Below, piece after piece: positions 4,505 through 64,000 of a stretch of DNA of 64,000 bases. The notes below the pieces were generated by a model. That model worked only from the letters and a program-made list of their open reading frames with translations, did no database searches and was not told where the DNA came from. Source of the DNA: Eledone cirrhosa (lineage: Eukaryota); NCBI GenBank assembly GCA_964016885.1, contig OZ024757.1, positions 29,202,001-29,266,000 on the forward strand, given 5' to 3'. Within the stretch, counting starts at the first letter, position 1, and each line of letters opens with the position of its first letter. Both the position numbers and the translations under genes were made by a program.

Positions 4505-4540
4505 TCTTAACGTTTCGGATGCTAGTCCTTCATCAGAAGA
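4505..4540 (-). ncRNA. Minimal type I hammerhead ribozyme (PLE type)
   Basis: Minus strand UCUU-CUGAUGA-AGGACUAGCAUCC-GAAAC-GUU-AAGA; stem I UCUU/AAGA, stem II GGA/UCC, palindromic AACGUU in place of stem III. Confidence 0.75.
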
Positions 4541-6895: not shown

Positions 6896-7216
6896 AAAGA
6901 ATAGAGGTGTAACACACAAGTTATTATATATTGGTAAACGGAATAGAATATGCTGACAAATTGTTCACAGTTGAAAAATGGTTTAATTAGGAATAAAAGA
7001 GTATTAGTGATTGTATGGGTTAGTATTCAGTTGTGGTTTTAAGTTTTTAAGTTTTTACCGGTTGCGCATTTCTAAATGCTTTTCAAAAATAATTTTGAGA
7101 TAGAGTGTCCGTGTTGTTTGCTCAGATCAGAGCAAACGACACGGACAGGTGGTGCTATTAAGTTAGACATGGCCTGGGCCAATACTGGCCAAAACATTTC
7201 AAAGTTATTCAAAGTT

Positions 7217-7289
7217 ATATATATATATATATATTTATATATTTATATATATATTTATATATATATATTTATATATATTTATATATATA

Positions 7290-7339
<50 letters not shown>

Positions 7340-7370
7340 TATATATATATTTATATATATATATATATAT

Positions 7371-7420
<50 letters not shown>

Positions 7421-7428
7421 TATATATA

Positions 7429-7515
<87 letters not shown>

Positions 7516-7529
7516 TATATATATATATT

Positions 7530-7565
<36 letters not shown>

Positions 7566-7631
7566 ATTTATATTTATATATATATATATATTTATATATA
7601 TTTATATATATATTTATATATATATATATAT

Positions 7632-7690
<59 letters not shown>

Positions 7691-7735
7691 TTATATATAT
7701 ATATATATTATATATATTTATATATATATATATAT

Positions 7736-7766
<31 letters not shown>

Positions 7767-7789
7767 ATATATATATATTTATATATATT

Positions 7790-7820
<31 letters not shown>

Positions 7821-7898
7821 ATATATATTTATATATATATTTATATATATATATATTTATATATATATTTATATATATATATATATTATATATATATT

Positions 7899-7929
<31 letters not shown>

Positions 7930-7995
7930 ATATATATTTATATATATATTTATATATATATATATTTATATATATATTTATATATATATATATAT

Positions 7996-8026
<31 letters not shown>

Positions 8027-8079
8027 ATATATATATTTATATATATATTTATATATATATATATATTTATATATATATT

Positions 8080-8128
<49 letters not shown>

Positions 8129-8173
8129 ATATTTATGTATATATATATTTATATATATATATATATTTATGTA

Positions 8174-8254
<81 letters not shown>

Positions 8255-8279
8255 GTATATTTATATATATATTTATGTA

Positions 8280-8310
<31 letters not shown>
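7217..8310. repeat. (TA)n microsatellite, about 1.1 kb
   Basis: Direct reading. Confidence 0.95.
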
Positions 8311-8313
<3 letters not shown>

Positions 8314-10096
8314 AATATAGACATAGAATATTCGAAAATATTCTGTATGTTTATAATAAACATTTTGAAGACCTAATCGCTATAGAATAGAATACGTCAC
8401 GTATTACAATTAGATTCTCGATAAAAGCAAGGGAAGTAAATCTACGCGTTTCATTCTCGTTAGAAATCGTCAGGACTACATATCCAGTGCTTTTATCGAG
8501 AATGACACAGCTAGAGACTTATAGAATACTTAGCTGTGTACAGGAACTGGTTTGAAAGAGCGGTTGCCGGTCCGGCAGAAATTAGAAATTGGAATAAATG
8601 CTCTGAAATAGCGATATATATGTGAATATAGACATAGAATATTCGAAAATATTCTGTATGTTTATAATAAACATTTTGAAGACCTAATCGCTATAGAATA
8701 GAATACGTCACGTATTACAATTAGATTCTCGATAAAAGCAAGGGAAGTAAATCTACGCGTTTCATTCTCGTTAGAAATCGTCAGGACTACATATCCAGTG
8801 CTTTTATCGAGAATGACACAGCTAGAGACTTATAGAATACTTAGCTGTGTACAGGAACTGGTTTGAAAGAGCGGTTGCCGGTCCGGCAGAAATTAGAAAT
8901 TGGAATAAATGCTCTGAAATAGCGATATATATGTGAATATAGACATAGAATATTCGAAAATATTCTGTATGTTTATAATAAACATTTTGAAGACCTAATC
9001 GCTATAGAATAGAATACGTCACGTATTACAATTAGATTCTCGATAAAAGCAAGGGAAGTAAATCTACGCGTTTCATTCTCGTTAGAAATCGTCAGGACTA
9101 CATATCCAGTGCTTTTATCGAGAATGACACAGCTAGAGACTTATAGAATACTTAGCTGTGTACAGGAACTGGTTTGAAAGAGCGGTTGCCGGTCCGGCAG
9201 AAATTAGAAATTGGAATAAATGCTCTGAAATAGCGATATATATGTGAATATAGACATAGAATATTCGAAAATATTCTGTATGTTTATAATAAACATTTTG
9301 AAGACCTAATCGCTATAGAATAGAATACGTCACGTATTACAATTAGATTCTCGATAAAAGCAAGGGAAGTAAATCTACGCGTTTCATTCTCGTTAGAAAT
9401 CGTCAGGACTACATATCCAGTGCTTTTATCGAGAATGACACAGCTAGAGACTTATAGAATACTTAGCTGTGTACAGGAACTGGTTTGAAAGAGCGGTTGC
9501 CGGTCCGGCAGAAATTAGAAATTGGAATAAATGCTCTGAAATAGCGATATATATGTGAATATAGACATAGAATATTCGAAAATATTCTGTATGTTTATAA
9601 TAAACATTTTGAAGACCTAATCGCTATAGAATAGAATACGTCACGTATTACAATTAGATTCTCGATAAAAGCAAGGGAAGTAAATCTACGCGTTTCATTC
9701 TCGTTAGAAATCGTCAGGACTACATATCCAGTGCTTTTATCGAGAATGACACAGCTAGAGACTTATAGAATACTTAGCTGTGTACAGGAACTGGTTTGAA
9801 AGAGCGGTTGCCGGTCCGGCAGAAATTAGAAATTGGAATAAATGCTCTGAAATAGCGATATATATGTGAATATAGACATAGAATATTCGAAAATATTCTG
9901 TATGTTTATAATAAACATTTTGAAGACCTAATCGCTATAGAATAGAATACGTCACGTATTACAATTAGATTCTCGATAAAAGCAAGGGAAGTAAATCTAC
10001 GCGTTTCATTCTCGTTAGAAATCGTCAGGACTACATATCCAGTGCTTTTATCGAGAATGACACAGCTAGAGACTTATAGAATACTTAGCTGTGTAC
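8311..10096 (-). mobile_element. 311-bp tandem array (about 5.7 copies), one hammerhead per monomer; non-LTR retrozyme-like
   Basis: Monomers start at 8311, 8622, 8933, 9244, 9555, 9866; minus-strand HHR at 8436-8479, 8747-8790, 9058-9101, 9369-9412, 9680-9723, 9991-10034. Confidence 0.9.
8436..8479 (-). ncRNA. Type I hammerhead ribozyme, first of six array copies
   Basis: GUAGUC-CUGACGA-UUUCUAACGAGAAU-GAAAC-GC-GUA-GAUUUAC; predicted cleavage between 8443 and 8442. Confidence 0.9.
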
Positions 10097-10111
10097 TTAT
10101 AGAATACTTAG

Positions 10112-10330
10112 CTCGATAAAAGCACTGGATATGTAGTCCTGACGATTTCTAACGAGAATGAAACGCGTAGATTTACTTCCCTTGCTTTTATCGAGAATCT
10201 AATTGTAATACGTGACGTATTCTATTCTATAGCGATTAGGTCTTCAAAATGTTTATTATAAACATACAGAATATTTTCGAATATTCTATGTCTATATTCA
10301 CATATATATCGCTATTTCAGAGCATTTATT
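10112..10330 (+). mobile_element. Inverted partial copy of the 311-bp monomer with intact hammerhead (10133-10176)
   Basis: Reverse complement of array sequence; CTGACGA 10139-10145, GAAAC 10160-10164, GTA 10167-10169. Confidence 0.9.
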
Positions 10331-14002
<3,672 letters not shown>

Positions 14003-14566
14003 TGTTTGAAGTTTTGTCTCAGATTTTGCTTATAGACCTAAGAATTTTTAAACCGAGCATGTGGTCATTTTTTTTACACATTATAGATATGTGTCTCATT
14101 CATGAATACTGGTATTTACATTATAGTGCCTAATTCATAAAAATTGATAATTCAAATGGATGAGACATAATTTATTTTTAATATATTTTAAATATATCAT
14201 CTTTCTTTCTTTTTCTCCTATACACTAATCTAACTGTATCCCTTCCCTTAACCTCTCACATATACGATGAGCATCTGTCAAAATGCAGCCTACTATGTTT
14301 TTTTTTTCACCATCAATGTATTTCTCTCTATCCTTGTCTCTCTATCTCGTTCCGTTGTTTTTCTTTACATACATCTCTTTTCTCTTTGCATACATCTCTT
14401 CATCTTCTTTTTTATTTACATACATCTCTTCACCTTCTTCTTCTCATCTTCGTTTTCTTTCTATATAACTATCATAACAGTTTCACTACCAAATCAACTT
14501 TTTTAAAAGGAAGTTGCATTCTCAAAAGGTATGTCACTAATTATTTATAAAACAGCTTATGTATTG

Positions 14567-14632
14567 TATTTTGTCTGAGGAAGGCATAACATATTTTTAA
14601 TATGATATCCCAGAAATATATATAACGAAATA
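14567..14632 (+). ncRNA. Family-C hammerhead (CUGAGGA)
   Basis: UAUUUUGU-CUGAGGA-long stem II-GAAA-UAUAUAUA-ACGAAAUA; element homologous to 45040-45260 and 61000-61210. Confidence 0.75.
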
Positions 14633-14674
14633 AATATGGTTTTATAAATATAGTTTCCATTTGTTTAATATCGT

Positions 14675-15977
<1,303 letters not shown>

Positions 15978-16177
15978 NNNNNNNNNNNNNNNNNNNNNNN
16001 NNNNNNNNNNNNNNNNNNNNNNNNNNNNNNNNNNNNNNNNNNNNNNNNNNNNNNNNNNNNNNNNNNNNNNNNNNNNNNNNNNNNNNNNNNNNNNNNNNNN
16101 NNNNNNNNNNNNNNNNNNNNNNNNNNNNNNNNNNNNNNNNNNNNNNNNNNNNNNNNNNNNNNNNNNNNNNNNNNNNN
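15978..16177. other. Assembly gap (200 N)
   Basis: Run of N. Confidence 1.
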
Positions 16178-22437: not shown

Positions 22438-23356
22438 AATCTCTTTCTCTTAATTTCGAGTATATTTTTTTGACCGGCCACCTTCCTGGTGGCAAGGTTG
22501 TAAAAGAAAAGAAATTGTCATCCCTTGAATCGCAAGAATGTTTTGCAAATTTTGAAGGTGCCAGCTATCGCAGCCATTTGTAGACTATGAATTAGGGAGC
22601 TGCGCTTTTTGTCCGCAAATCCAAGTTCAGTCATACTTTGCTCCAAGCGGGTTGGTATATAACCCGTAGCACCAATAATGATGGGTATGAAGCTAAACGT
22701 GTATCTTGGATACTGGATTTGTAAACTCCTCATCAATGGTCCGTAGATGTCCTTCTCCTGTATTTTTCTGACAACGTTTACATCAAGTGGGCAGCTGATC
22801 TCCACAACAGAACACGTTTTCAATGTGTGGTCCCAAACAACAATATCAGGCCGGTTGTGCTTTAATTTGGTGCCAGTTTTTTATTTTCAGGTTCCACCAG
22901 TATTCCTTAGTGCCATCTATCTCAATATATTCTTCCTCGTTTGTTGTTAATTTTATTTTCCGAAGTGCGTTCCAGTTGGTTCTAGCTATCCCATCGTGTC
23001 TCATGGGGAGGTAGTAGCGAGATGACATTCTTTCGCAGCTGGCAACAATGTGGCTTACATCCTCGATCTTTGTTTTACATAGCCTACATTTATTGTCAGC
23101 TGCTGGCCTTCCTCTTTTGTGCAGCAGATATTTGGTAGTGAGTTCTTGTTCCTGTATTGCATAGAGATATCCCTCAAGGTGTGATGTCATAAACTTGTCG
23201 GAACTCCATACCAGGCTTTTTGAGTGGTTTATCTCCTCTATGGTCTGTGTTTTACGTCTCAAGTATCCATGCACAACTTTTTCTGTAAATTGGTCAATTT
23301 TTTCATCTTGTTTGAACATTGAATAGGATCTTCCGATTTCTCTGGGTGAGAGATTT
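22438..23356 (-). pseudogene. 5'-truncated R4/Dong-clade-like non-LTR retrotransposon (CCHC knuckle plus restriction-like endonuclease)
   Basis: AIQEQELTTKY, CRLCKTKIEDVSHIVASC, RHD, RPDIVVWD..VEISCP, IPIIIGATG motifs; one frameshift near 22880. Confidence 0.85.
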
Positions 23357-23465
23357 ATGTATGTATGTATGTATGTATGTATGTATGTATGTATGTATGT
23401 ATGTATGTATGTATGTATGTATGTATGTATGTATGTATGTATGTATGTATGTATGTATGCATATA

Positions 23466-23866
23466 TGTTTCTCTTTCTTGTAATTTCGAGTACATTTTGA
23501 CCGGACACCTTCCTGGGGGTAAGGTTGTAACAAAAAAGAAATTGTCATCCCTTGAATCGCAAGAATGTTGTACAAATTTTGAAGGTGCCAGCTATCGCAG
23601 CCATTTGTAGCCTATGAATTAGGGATCTGCGCTCTTTTTCCACAAATCCAAGTTGAGTCATATTTTGGTCCAAGCGGACTGGTATATAAACTGTAACTCC
23701 AATAATGATGGGTATGAAGCTGAAGATGGTACTGGAGCTACAAACTCCTCATCAATGGTTTGTAGATGTCCCCCACCCCCTATTGTATTTTTCTTACAAC
23801 GTTGGCATCAAGTTGGCAGCTGATCTCTACAACAGAGCACGTTTTCAATATGTGGTCCCAAACAAA
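23466..23866 (-). mobile_element. Second, shorter and more decayed copy of the same R4/Dong-like element
   Basis: Colinear similarity to 22440-22840. Confidence 0.85.
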
Positions 23867-27139: not shown

Positions 27140-28352
27140 ATGTGTGTGTGTGTGTGTGTGTATGTGTGTGTTGATAATTTATAATTGTCAGATCATGTTG
27201 AAAGACACTGTTTATCACTTGGGTAAAATAATACAATAAACATTTGTTATAGTTTGAATCTAACACTTTCGTCTTTCGTGCAATTTATCTAAACCTATAT
27301 TTAGTTGTTATTAAAAAGTCACATTAGAAGTTCTGCTTATTTAATAAAAACTAAATATATATCATGATAAATCTAATAAAACACGAAAGCGATAGTTTCA
27401 AACTATACAAAACTTTTTATTATATATTTTTGTAAAACAGTGTCTTGTTCTTCTGACAATTATTCTGAAAATTACCAAATACAAATTTGTAAGGCAGATT
27501 AACCACTCTACGTAGAATATACTGTTCTATAGATAATATTGGTCCTTAAAGGTTGGTAAACGAGGGAGTATATACTATATATTTAGCAACAAAAATATGA
27601 TGCTTTTGGAAATCATATACGCATAGAAATCTAAGTCCATCTTAAACCGTCGTCAGCGAAACTTCGAAAGGGAAGTGAAGTGTGATGTTGATGATGATAT
27701 ATACCATAGAAAGCCATACTGCACAGAAATTGCCGACATATGAACACAAACGCACAGAATTTGCTAAGCATATTTCATAGCTTTGCGAGAATGGCAGAAT
27801 CAATGATATAAACAATAAAAATATACCATAAAATTAACTTATATAGAAATAGGCTATTCCAGAAACTATATGGATAAATGCTGAGTATTTAATAAGAAGA
27901 TACGTTTTCCTAGCAAATGACTAGTATTTGAAAGTATATAGCAAGAGGGGTAAATATGAAAATCAAAAATCAAATTTAGATCCATAATATATAAACAAGA
28001 ATGACATGCACGTATAACTAATAGTAGAGATATTGAATCTAGAAACAGGCCACACAATGAAGTATATCTATATACAATATACTCTAGAGAAACAATACAC
28101 ACAGAAGTCTATGTTCATCGGAAAATATCGTGTCTTAGTATAAGCTGTGCTTATATATCTTTATATATATTATCACTATAAATCTGATTATTTTCACTTT
28201 TAGTAAGCCCTTTCGCTAATCGCTTTACACGGAAAAAGTATTTTCTTTTTAAATACGAATATTTTTATCCATATATTTGTTATGACAACCCATTTCTGTA
28301 CGATAAAGTATATTTTACGTATATATATGAATAGTCACACACACACATATAC

Positions 28353-28548
28353 AATATAGAAATGGCTTCTACAGGATTAGAACTGTTTCGTTCGAAGAAA
28401 ATCATCAGGAAACCACTTTGCTGATGATTTCAATCGAATGAAACAGTTCTAGACATGTAGAAGCCATTTCTATATTAAATATTTGTATATACTCTACTAG
28501 TGTATTGAGTATCTTACTGTGTTTACCCCTGATTGGACCCAGGACTCA
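28353..28548. mobile_element. Family-B element with two back-to-back hammerheads (minus 28364-28414, plus 28417-28465)
   Basis: TCATCAG at 28402 and CTGATGA at 28421, each followed by GAAACAG..GUA-GAAGCC on its own strand. Confidence 0.8.
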
Positions 28549-28833
28549 TATATTATATATATATATATGATTTGCGTTGTTCGTTTCGGCTGTCTGGACT
28601 CTGAGTTCAAAACCCGCCGAGGTCAGCTTTGCCTTTCATTCTTTCGAGGTCGATAAAATAAATACTAGTGGAGTACAGGAGTCAGATCTTCCTCTATCTA
28701 TCTATATATATACAAATGAAAATAGAGAAATTAATGTGAGCAAGAAGCCAACAGTATTTCATAATATTTAAGTGACTATAACGTCAAGATGGAAAATATT
28801 TAACGTAAGATATGGAAAAATAATTCAAACTCA

Positions 28834-31214: not shown

Positions 31215-31690
31215 TCATAAGTTGACATTGTTAAGCCATCGTTTTGGCTGTCGGCATTTGCTTCTCTTACCAGCCAACCTTCCTTCCAGACATAACCTAC
31301 TCACACCACAAGTTGATCTTTTTATATGACCGTATAGTTTGAGTACTCTTGACTTGACAATTGATATAATTGGTCTAAGTTTGTTAATGTTGAGCAGCTC
31401 ACTGATACAGATACGGTTGCTGAGCCGCTTACCAGTCATAAGTCTCATGATGTGGTTCTGGAATGTATAGAACTTTTGACGTGACCTTGTCGTCCAATTA
31501 ACACAGTCAAGACCATAAAACACTACTGGTAGGATGTAAGTATCAAAGATCTTAGCTTCCAAATGGTAGGAAACTCGTTTTGATGTTTGTACTTCCTTAC
31601 TTCCTTATTCTTGTTGAAAGCTGCCCAAACTAGAGCGATTCTATATTGCGCAGCAACCATTCCATTGTCATTTATATTGTCGTGTTATTA
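31215..31690 (-). mobile_element. RTE-clade LINE 3' fragment
   Basis: RIALVWAAF..KIFDTYILPVVFYGLDC..LKLYGHIKR..LEGRLAGKRSKCRQPKRW. Confidence 0.8.
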
Positions 31691-33352: not shown

Positions 33353-34049
33353 CTTAATAATAACAATAATGATAAACGTTACAACATCCTGAAGTTAAAA
33401 TGGATTTCTATCTCTTCAATTTAAAAGACACTTTAAATGTCAGACCACTACACAACAGGAATGTATTATGAGCTGCATACCCTCTATTTATTTATATCCC
33501 TTAATCTCTTTCACTAAAATGTGAATGGTGAAAAACTTCAATACTGATAAAGACCTGTGTTGCTGTCTGATGAGGCACTGCAGATATGAATAATTGAAAA
33601 CATCGTTCGCTTTTTATAAGAATAAGAATAAAAATTATAAAAATTGAGAAGGAAATTGACGTCATATTTGTAATATTTCATTCCAAAATTGTTGAATTAA
33701 AGACAATAATAATCAATGATTTACTAAACTGTTCCGTACTTTAAATTTTTCCTTCTTATTTGAAAAAAACAACAACAAAAAAAACCCAACACAAACAACA
33801 AAAAGAAAAGTGAAAATATAATTAAGATAACATCATAAGAGAATTAATTTTTTTTTCTTCAAATATGTCGGAATATTAAAATCATTAAAGTTGAATATAA
33901 TTCATTGAAATATTTAATTACTTCATTTACAGAACATATTATTTCATCGAATATTATCACAGTGACTGATTTTTCTGTAGATAAACATCATGTCTGAGAT
34001 GGTTAGTAGCGAAAAAATACCGCTGTGATGTTCATGACTTTCTCACATG

Positions 34050-34420
34050 TTCCGCGGTGGCAAACCCCTCGTCGGGATGCCACTTGCAGCGACACATTCT
34101 CCAGCCGCAACCTGGTGCAGTCTGCAGCTAACCCAGGTTCTGTGGCACGTCGAGCTGAGGGGAGCAAACTCTCCAAGTGCCGATCGCTCTCCGACAGGTT
34201 TGCGGTCGTGCCCCTAGCAGTGGAGACTTTTGTTGTCCTTGACCCTAGGGCTACCTCCCTACTCACCACCATAGGCGCTGAGCTGGCCAGCCGTAGATGT
34301 GAGCTTCATGAGATGGAAAGGCTCTTCCAGCGCATCTCTCTTACCATCGTCCGGGGAAACGCTTTCTTTATTCTGCCCGCCGGGTCTGTGGGGAGGCCAG
34401 CATGTGGGACCCCATTTGCT
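34050..34420 (+). mobile_element. CRE-like non-LTR retrotransposon 3' fragment
   Basis: DATCSDTFS..AE.SKLSK..FAVVPLAVET..FQRISLTIVRGNA. Confidence 0.8.
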
Positions 34421-34664
34421 CACCATACAGATAGATGGGGAGGGCGAGAGAGGTGGAGGCGATGACAGTGGGAGTTCGGCTCTTCCACTTTCGGACCGTA
34501 TCGTTGTGGTTGTGTTTATTATCAATATAGAAAATTATTTATTTCCCTTTTTGTATATATCTCCCTTATTAGCAAGTATATCAGTAGAATCTGATCTGTT
34601 TTATTAATATCTAGAATATATATAATCCCCATGTATTGGTTATATTCACTATATTTTGGATGTA

Positions 34665-45653: not shown

Positions 45654-45817
45654 AGTTTATCCCGGGTTCAATCAGGGGTAACCACAGTAAGTAAGGTACT
45701 CAATACAAAGCAGAGTATATATATTTTATATTTAATATAGAAAGGGCCTCTACGGGACTAGAACGGTTTCCTGATGATTTCCCCCGAATGAAACAGTTCT
45801 AGTTTTGTAGAAGCCTT

Positions 45818-45822
<5 letters not shown>
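45653..45822. mobile_element. Family-B element; plus-strand hammerhead 45765-45815 joined to inverted 3' half
   Basis: GGUUUC-CUGAUGA-UUUCCCCCGAAU-GAAACAG..UUGUA-GAAGCC. Confidence 0.8.
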
Positions 45823-45868
<46 letters not shown>

Positions 45869-49853: not shown

Positions 49854-49902
49854 GCTTCCTGATGATTTTTCCCGAATGAAACAGTTCTAGTCCTGTAGAA
49901 GC
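49854..49902 (+). ncRNA. Family-B hammerhead, intact core
   Basis: GCUUC-CUGAUGA-UUUUUCCCGAAU-GAAACAG-UUCUAGUC-CUGUA-GAAGC; tail extends to about 49988. Confidence 0.85.
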
Positions 49903-50717
49903 CATTTCTATATTAAATATTTATACTCTGCTATGTATTGAGTACCTTACTTACTGTAGTTACCCCCGATTGAACCCGGGGTTAACTTATATATATATAT
50001 ATTTATCGCAAAAAATATATATATTATATATATATTTGTGTCTATTTGTGTGTCTATATATATATTATATATATATTTGTGTCTCTATATATATATTATA
50101 TATATATTTGTGTCTGTTTGTGTGTCTATATATATATTATATATATATATGTCTGTTTGTGTGTCTATATATATATATAGGTGTGTGTGCGTGTGTGTGC
50201 ATGTGTATATGTGTGCGTGTAGTGTATGCTATAGTTCCTTGTGTATATGTGTGTGGCTATTGTGCGACAATTATTCTAGCATTACAACAAACAACAACAA
50301 AAACTACTACAACAACTACTACTACTACTACTACTACTACAGCAGCAGCAGTAACAGTAGTAGTAGTAGTAATAGTAGTAGTAATAGTAACACTAGCAGC
50401 AATACAACTGGTATTTATAGTACTAGCAGTAGTAACTGTAGCATTATCAGCAGCAGTGGTACTAGTAGTAGAAGTTCTAGTAGTGCAGCAGCAGCACAAT
50501 AGCAGGAGCGACATAAGAACTACTACTACTACTACTAGTATTAATAGTAGTAGTAGTAGTAGTAGTAGTAGCAGCAGCAGCAGCAGCAGTTGCTTTAACG
50601 TGTTGTTGGCGTTAACAACGTGAATGCTAGTCTGCTGTTTGTGTTGCGATATTAGCGTCGTTGTTGTTGATGTTGCGATTGTTGATGTTGCGAATGTTTA
50701 TGTTGTGAATGGATCGT

Positions 50718-61562: not shown

Positions 61563-61661
61563 TAGTACCACAAGAGTTAATTCAGCATTTCCGAGAATAA
61601 TTGTTTCAGTTTACTCGGATCATCAGTTCGGAAATGGTGAACTAACTTTTGTGGAACTACT
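61561..61661 (-). ncRNA. Long hairpin (34-bp imperfect arms) enclosing a weak hammerhead-like core
   Basis: Arms 61561-61594 and 61628-61661; minus strand GAA-CUGAUGA-UCCGAGUAAACU-GAAAC-AA-UUA-UUC. Confidence 0.5.
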
Positions 61662-63244: not shown

Positions 63245-63442
63245 AGTTTTAATATAGATGAGATTCTACAAGACTAGAACTGTTTCATTCATTTGAAATC
63301 ATCAGGAATCTCTGATTCCTGATGATTTCAAATGAATGAAACAGTTCTAGTCCTGTAGAATCTCATCTATATTAAAACTGTTATACTCTGCTATGTATTG
63401 AGTACCTTACTTACTGTGGTTACCTCCGATTCAACCCGGAAT
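63245..63442. mobile_element. Family-B element with two divergent hammerheads forming a 66-bp-arm palindrome
   Basis: Arms 63245-63310 and 63314-63379, one mismatch; GAUUC-CUGAUGA-UUUCAAAUGAAU-GAAACAG..CUGUA-GAAUC. Confidence 0.9.
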
Positions 63443-64000
63443 AACGTATATATATATATATATATTTGTATGTATGTATGTTGGCATGTATGTATATATA
63501 TAGGTTGATGGATGTATGTACTACAATGTATGTATGTATGTATGTATGTATGTATGTATGTATATGGATATATGTATATATATATATATGAATGTGAATA
63601 TATGCTTCTATCAAAATAAGTATAAGTGTATGGTTATGTTGTGTCTGTATCTCTGCTTAATCGTGTGTGCATTTGTGTGTGGATGTATGCCTATTTTCTT
63701 GTGCGTGTGTATGTATGTATGTATGAGTTTTAAATTGTGTGTGCATGTCTGAATTCTAATGTGTGTCACCGAGCGCCTACACGTCTGTATGTGTATGTGT
63801 CTGTTTTTGTGTGTTTCATGAAGTGTGGCGCAGTTTGTGCGTATGAGCGTGCATATATGTGCGATGTGTGTGTGTCTTAATGCGCCACTATTTGAATGGG
63901 TGTGTGTGTGTTTGTGTGTTTGCATGTATATGTTTGTGCGTGCATGCATATGTTCGTGTGCGTGTCTTAATGCGCCACTGTTTGAGTGTGTATGTATATG

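Follow-up and report, generated by a model that had tools for sequence, protein, structure and literature searches.

A tandem array of a 311-bp unit carrying a hammerhead ribozyme motif lies between two (TA)n tracts in the window, the whole 64,000-nucleotide stretch of DNA analysed here, and raises the question of what kind of element it is and how it was inserted. A preliminary description, made from the letters alone, had read it as a young non-LTR retrozyme with Penelope-like elements (PLEs) as its proposed mobiliser. The most informative feature is the inverted second arm of the insertion together with its two fixed end sites.

Structure of the insertion

The tandem part (arm 1) occupies 8303–10096 on the minus strand, which is the RNA sense, and consists of 5.77 copies of a 311-bp period at 100% identity, as determined by Tandem Repeats Finder and by an unbroken identity at a lag of 311. 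The unit has a G+C content of 34.7% and no coding capacity, the longest Met-started frame being 30 aa and the longest stop-to-stop frame 59 aa. The earlier account of about 5.7 identical monomers without an ORF was thus right. Unit positions were numbered from the predicted ribozyme cut site. The cut-to-cut monomer at 8443–8753 (−) has position 1 at 8753 and position 311 at 8443, and five complete monomers lie between the six motifs of arm 1.

The array had been placed at 8311–10330, but the tandem arm ends at 10096 and the stretch 10112–10330 is an inverted arm that was overlooked. The outer end of arm 1 is at unit position 140 (the short site, 8303) and its inner end at position 213. The central junction (10097–10111) is a 15-nt insert duplicating the arm 1 sequence just upstream, that is, a templated insertion. 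Arm 2 (10112–10330, plus strand) is an inverted 0.70 copy running from unit position 254 to 161, and its outer end is the tail site. With ends at positions 140 and 161, the insertion in the window has a tail of 21 nt. A structured module containing both end sites is located at 10224–10330 (+), and its hairpins are kept in sister subfamilies.

The left (TA)n tract, the target, spans 7216–8302, with the TTTATGTA unit confined to its final 170 bp; the right tract spans 10331–15977, with the same unit confined to its first 180 bp. The right tract stops at a 200-base assembly gap (15978–16177), so its length is a lower bound.

The predicted hammerhead ribozyme

A type I hammerhead core (CUGACGA...GAAAC-GC-GUA) was located at 8443–8473 (−), with a predicted cut at 8443/8442. 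Further cores follow every 311 bp on the same strand (8754–8784, 9065–9095, 9376–9406, 9687–9717 and 9998–10028), six in all, in agreement with the core and the cut site that the preliminary description had assigned to each monomer. A seventh core lies in arm 2 at 10139–10169 (+), with a predicted cut at 10169/10170. The core residues C3 U4 G5 A6 N7 G8 A9, G12 A13 A14, A15.1-U16.1 and H17, compared with the consensus of PMC3088659, are present in all seven copies. No hammerhead core was found on the opposite strand, and an Rfam scan, proposed at the outset as a check, gave no hammerhead match at the gathering threshold or at E ≤ 10.

The whole ribozyme domain (8416–8500, minus strand) comprises an outer stem, an internal loop, stem I, the core, stem II and stem III. 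Stems I to III close the core and stem I is open-ended, as in type I. The stem I described earlier (GUAGUC/GAUUUAC) is present with one bulged U and, by fold prediction, is extended by the internal loop and a 13-bp outer stem; a U·U mismatch at the base of stem II had been missed. Stem II has 4 bp above this mismatch (10.1 and 11.1 unpaired). The 10.1-11.1 pair is absent in the window, while 7 of 61 insertions have A-U at this place. A U·U at the base of stem II is a known natural hammerhead variant (PMC3088659) and is described for axolotl Amex2, and axolotl Amex1 has a palindromic short helix III like that of the 311-nt unit (both PMC7229834). Stem III has 2 bp and a 2-nt loop within the palindrome ACGCGU, a dimer-type arrangement that would fit cleavage as a dimer (cf. 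PMC4209133). As modelled, stems II and III of the window haplotype are weak. The unit fold was stronger than 100 of 100 shuffles (z −4.4), and the lowest-energy fold of the monomer is not the active ribozyme fold.

The ribozyme was also compared among sister subfamilies, which are approximately 70–94% identical and have a common layout. When 12 sister sequences were placed on the fold, 91.6% of cells paired and 17 of 25 pairs had changed on both sides; the structure was specified by the analyst, and the 12 sequences belong to three to five related subfamilies and are not independent. The paired changes include C3-G8 to U3-A8, known as an active natural hammerhead variant (PMC3088659). Within the family, the common variants affect N7, loop II, the bulge of stem I and position 10.1, where a change from U to A restores the pair. 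No variant is fixed among the 11 invariant core letters, a sparing that is not significant by itself (p 0.054). The data are supportive of a ribozyme that may have been kept by selection.

Family size and dispersal

A search of the species' own genome (3.0 Gb) gave at least 409 unit matches from 39 scored of 113 candidates, and a 20-mer of the unit occurred 16,657 times. The exact ribozyme haplotype of the window is in the minority, with 154 occurrences against ~16,657 units, and most sampled insertions have a unit of 310 nt. Exact junctions of a unit end with (AT)n numbered 1,013 for the tail site (position 166) and 1,242 for the short site (position 140), and reversed controls gave 0. Dividing the 16,657 units by a sample mean of 10 per insertion, together with recapture between the two junction patterns, we infer a family of about 16,700 units in roughly 1,500–1,900 insertions.

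The units of 310–311 nt fall within the retrozyme range (150–450 bp, G+C below 50%, one type I motif each). The genome-wide search that had been suggested thus placed the unit at well over a thousand sites, and near-identical copies across the genome, with ribozyme covariation across sister subfamilies, bear out the early view of a young non-LTR retrozyme. On sequence grounds, the feature in the window is a real and young element of this kind, recently inserted. About 5 Mb of near-perfect palindromes were recently added to the genome by the family.

Two arms and two end sites

Ends were paired within 218 Mb of contig 1, using the 100 short-site matches listed and those 78 of the 100 tail-site matches listed that lie in this stretch. 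Among these, all 54 outward-facing pairs were mixed (one tail-site and one short-site end), and 70 ends were unpaired. These pairs and single-anchored loci were fetched as 79 stretches with 81 insertions, a sample enriched for paired ends, in which 73 insertions were two-armed and 8 single-armed (one of these at a gap). In all 73 two-armed insertions, 54 of which were preselected as pairs and 19 were not (a local duplicate, L079, is counted twice), one end lay at 138–141 and the other at 164–173 (166 in 59). The same rule held for 14 of the 16 readable two-armed loci chosen by identity, the exceptions being L041 and L037. The two arms of L041 (G000:C1:281386900-281396899) end at 199 and 234, 35 nt apart, in TA. 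The family tail is therefore 26 nt (~140 vs ~166), compared with 21 nt in the window.

Alternating AT was present at both ends in 69 of the 73 two-armed insertions. Very long (TA)n flanks, as noted earlier, do occur at the window (7216–8302 and 10331–15977) but are not a trait of the family, most sampled ends having pure TA for only tens of bases. We considered whether the element itself generates the long TA tracts and discarded this as a rule, most flanks being short. At short-site ends, 42 of 73 carried T in place of the unit's C132, as expected for a trace of a TA primer paired over a mismatch. Words shared between the flanks were direct in 31 and inverted in 24 cases (18 and 22 in the control), in a (TA)n target that hides any target-site duplication.

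The arms reach up to 45 units, and their inner ends are scattered over the unit. Central junctions (n = 73) showed an overlap of at least 2 nt in 43, were blunt or overlapped by 1 nt in 15, and held inserts in 15. Run-off of the template at the cut site was considered and rejected: only 1 of 146 inner ends fell at unit positions 1–10 (4.7 expected), and 14 fell at positions 11–25 (7.0 expected, p 0.018), a post hoc contrast that coincides with a stem. In one insertion, a 272-nt unrelated, GC-richer sequence separates the arms (L068:2599-2870), possibly captured during joining.

In sister subfamilies, 4 of 26 pairs of the end-site module show compensatory change. The module at 10224–10330 is likely the site recognised by the PLE protein.

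One haplotype per insertion

To compare the two arms, haplotypes were called in the 61 insertions in which both arms had at least 1.1 copies. In 58 of the 61, the arms did not differ at any called site, while control pairings of arms across loci were concordant in 476 of 3,660 (13%). The 61 insertions carried 24 haplotypes, each fixed over both arms, and 17 of these were seen once. For an allele to be fixed over both multi-copy arms, a single unit must at some step have been amplified. Assembly expansion, the alternative raised in the preliminary description, is unlikely because the identical layout recurs at many loci, each with its locus-specific haplotype.

Alternatively, the family might be a satellite that was amplified and spread as DNA, or it might reflect an artefact of assembly, with the hammerhead as a passenger. 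Partial variant sweeps in long arms do indicate some DNA turnover (L068, L088/L089), the right flank of the window stops at a gap, and Rfam gives no match. Against this stand more than a thousand loci scattered over the genome, the pairing of two fixed end sites in TA, the inverted arms, the locus-specific haplotypes, and compensatory changes in both the ribozyme and the end module, which together leave this explanation extremely improbable.

Passes over the predicted cut site were unchanged in 724 of 726 cases and 140 of 146 arms crossed it, and the template was thus continuous at the cut site. A ligated circle, the route proposed in PMC4209133 and PMC7229834, would explain the arm concordance, the fixed alleles and the continuous cut site most simply.

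Two insertions carried an ordered series of variants. In L200 (G000:C1:136718700-136726700), the two outer units of both arms have one haplotype and the inner units another; in L191, with 2.2 units in each arm, only the outer unit carries a variant, again in both arms. Both arms were therefore copied in one register from an RNA of several ordered units. L200 and L191 are better accounted for by such a template than by a monomer circle. They also strengthen the case for one RNA with two primers, speak against fold-back, and mean that some templates are multimers. Such register-shared variants were found in 2 of 73 insertions. Of the minor-allele cells with a counterpart in the other arm, 14 (those of L200 and L191) were shared between the arms and 73 were not, some of the latter being junction artefacts; a further 72 lacked a counterpart. 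In L082, one arm only switches allele part-way. Fixed variants showed no skew (5 A>G vs 4 T>C sites), and scars of A-to-I editing were rejected on this count.

Under fold-back, a single enzyme would produce a single cDNA, and this cDNA would act as its own primer and so give the inverted arm. Self-priming has been proposed for inverted PLE structures (PMC3846280), and this route would give identical haplotypes in both arms and is in keeping with the 43 of 73 junctions that overlap by at least 2 nt. The copied arm, however, cannot be the longer one, yet among the 73 insertions the longer arm was the short-site one in 31 and the tail-site one in 42. Furthermore, both ends lie at fixed sites, and the variants of L200 align from the outer ends and are not mirrored about the centre. 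We regard this route as already largely refuted and very unlikely.

A more serious rival keeps the same PLE twin priming and differs in the template, which would usually be a linear, uncleaved multimer transcript of a genomic array, with circles as by-products and the ribozyme serving another step. It accounts for the clean passes over the cut site as well, and the same ordered variant series read from the outer end in both arms of L200 and L191 speaks for it, as do the weak stems II and III and the finding that, in vitro, the Poseidon protein acts mainly on unprocessed RNA (PMC11167929). On the other hand, arrays copied in this way could only shrink per generation, yet arms reach 45 units, and alleles fixed over both arms (24 haplotypes in 61 insertions) demand amplification from a single unit. 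DNA turnover would give arm-specific fixed differences, which were seen in at most 1–2 of 61. Variants shared in register were confined to 2 of 73 insertions, although few would be expected from young, homogeneous sources as well. We consider a usual linear template unlikely on balance.

It has also to be considered that multimers are made by viroid-like, RNA-to-RNA rolling replication of the circle and are then reverse transcribed linearly by the PLE. RNA-to-RNA replication is raised as a possibility in PMC7229834. This scheme would account for array-wide private alleles together with the ordered templates of L191 and L200; the opposite strand, where no hammerhead core was found, tells against it. 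No host polymerase for such circle replication is known in these animals, and we give the scheme very little credence. The usual template was probably a monomer circle, as suggested by the haplotype data.

Three sequencing runs labelled as other organisms each contained one 340-nt cyclic contig of the unit. These contigs were discounted as proof of circles or of host range, since the same contig would arise from a tandem array in DNA, and traces of DNA could account for it.

Penelope-like elements in the genome

Insertions of endonuclease-bearing (EN+) PLEs have, as standard features, an inverted 5′ copy and a tail of 30–40 bp on one side (PMC8557442, PMC3846280). In the present family, an inverted 5′ copy was observed in 73 of 81 insertions, a one-ended tail in 73 of 73, and alternating AT at both ends in 69 of 73. 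A search of the genome for the GIY-YIG domain gave 10,597 candidates, of which 150 were scored. PLE frames of 636–1096 aa matched reverse transcriptase (RT), and two of the three tested also matched GIY-YIG. By their CxxC linker, these PLEs look Neptune-like (cf. PMC8557442). Three coding copies (L152, L155 and L164) have an inverted arm, tails of ~38, 62 and 55 nt, respectively, and TA flanks. The proposal of a PLE as mobiliser is strengthened accordingly, with PLE-type ends on the insertions and PLEs present in the genome.

No coding PLE with a terminal repeat that convincingly matches the 311-nt unit was found in 50 GIY-YIG loci (of 150 scored, from 10,597 candidates), and the weak BLAST matches in those loci were microsatellites or independent insertions. 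Of 20 loci with the end module, 19 were covered; none of these was coding or had an RT plus GIY-YIG ORF, and no such ORF was found within the 311-nt element. Protein-like fragments are present in the window at 22518–23544, 31215–31604 and 34010–34465, all on the minus strand; they resemble proteins of non-LTR retrotransposons, namely C-terminal parts with a restriction-like endonuclease and RT.

Proposed mechanism of insertion

Mobilisation by a PLE with priming from both strands is very likely. In its fuller form, in which a PLE protein wrote the two-armed insertion into (TA)n from both cut strands on one RNA, usually a monomer circle, the reading is a probable one that we favour. The arrays would be transcribed, and the ribozymes would cut the array RNA, probably as dimers, the monomers then being ligated into circles. 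The PLE endonuclease would cut both strands of TA DNA, and each 3′ end would prime at its own RNA site, the two sites being adjacent. The two enzymes would pass repeatedly round the unit with strand displacement, and the two cDNAs would anneal end to end, each serving as template for the second strand of the other. The insertions themselves record two multimer arms whose 3′ ends face outward into (TA)n, ends near 140 and 166, a shared haplotype, and a central join made by microhomology or templated insertion.

In vitro, purified Poseidon protein cuts AT-rich DNA and extends both strands, and it begins synthesis at two neighbouring internal positions of the RNA, between which the tail lies (PMC11167929). 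Other results count against the fuller form. The same protein, the one PLE tested in vitro, did not need ribozyme cleavage (PMC11167929), and eight of nine Xenopus retrozyme dimers were not cleaved in vitro, according to a preprint (10.64898/2026.07.22.740005). The tail is shorter than in published PLEs, and no autonomous PLE with a matching terminal repeat was found in the 50 GIY-YIG loci or in the 19 loci with the end module.

The odds are about even that, in the germline of an animal, a telomerase-related PLE RT performs rolling-circle reverse transcription in twin form, using one 310-nt circle per insertion. If this is true, each insertion is the record of a single RNA molecule.

Comparison with known systems

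The metazoan non-LTR retrozymes of coral, mussel and axolotl likewise have a non-coding tandem unit of ~300 nt with low G+C and one type I hammerhead per unit, and PLEs are present in the same genomes (PMC7229834; 10.64898/2026.07.22.740005). In contrast to the published elements, nearly every insertion here consists of two inverted multimer arms with paired fixed ends in (TA)n. Expression and circles have been demonstrated in the published species, whereas the 311-nt family is known from the genome.

The insertions of EN+ PLEs (Penelope/Poseidon, Neptune and Naiad; PMC3846280, PMC8557442, PMC11167929) share with the present family the inverted 5′ copy, the one-ended tail, the AT-rich or (TA)n target, and a hammerhead in a repeated unit upstream of two reverse-transcription start sites. 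The 311-nt element differs in having no ORF and in iterating a unit the size of a terminal repeat up to 45 times per arm. Its tail is 26 nt (21 in the window) against 30–40 bp in the published elements, and in the 50 GIY-YIG loci it had no sequence match to a coding PLE.

In LINE-1 twin priming, both target strands prime on one RNA, and the result is an inversion joined by microhomology; the starts are the poly(A) end and a variable internal site, and each part is copied once. The likeness lies in the two primers on one RNA and in the inversion joined by microhomology. In the present family, unlike LINE-1, the two starts are at fixed internal sites next to each other, and each copy is a multimer.

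Movement of animal retrozymes through circular RNA and PLE enzymes has been proposed since 2014–2020, and the 2026 preprint adds phylogenetic support. No insertion footprint was found in the papers proposing this route: the word "inverted" does not occur in the main text of PMC7229834, and in the preprint (10.64898/2026.07.22.740005) "tail" is absent and "inverted" appears only in the title of a reference. We found no published octopus retrozymes or two-armed retrozyme insertions, with the proviso that the supplements of PMC7229834 and of the preprint may list relatives. The family supplies a genome-scale footprint, namely two start sites, an RNA module, a target and an expected product, and makes the proposed PLE-and-circle route directly testable. 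It also bears on how PLEs make inverted repeats and the second strand.

Related elements in the genome

Retrozyme-like sister subfamilies, ~320 nt in size and sharing the end module, were observed at L055:690-872, L113, L174 and L058:8970-9320. One ~320-nt sister subfamily combines the U3-A8 core variant with a 12-nt palindromic stem III, and one has 1,201 candidates in the genome. Coding PLE families (L152, L155, L164, L150 and L153) have long frames, two arms and tails that are specific to each family; in the L153/L164 family, the terminal repeat contains a U·U-based hammerhead motif.

Another dispersed family with a hammerhead-like motif (CCUGAUGAUUUC....GAAUGAAACAGUU), with U·U at the base of stem II, is present in the window at 28347–28600, 45771–45860, 49859–50000 and 63250–63470. 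Its ribozyme region is ~70% like that of the 311-nt unit over 80 nt and its 3′ part differs; two copies form head-to-head pairs, mostly ending in TA. Single minimal hammerhead-like motifs were also observed upstream of TA tracts at 4509–4536 and 61599–61626, both on the minus strand, and are likely the ends of other PLE-related elements.
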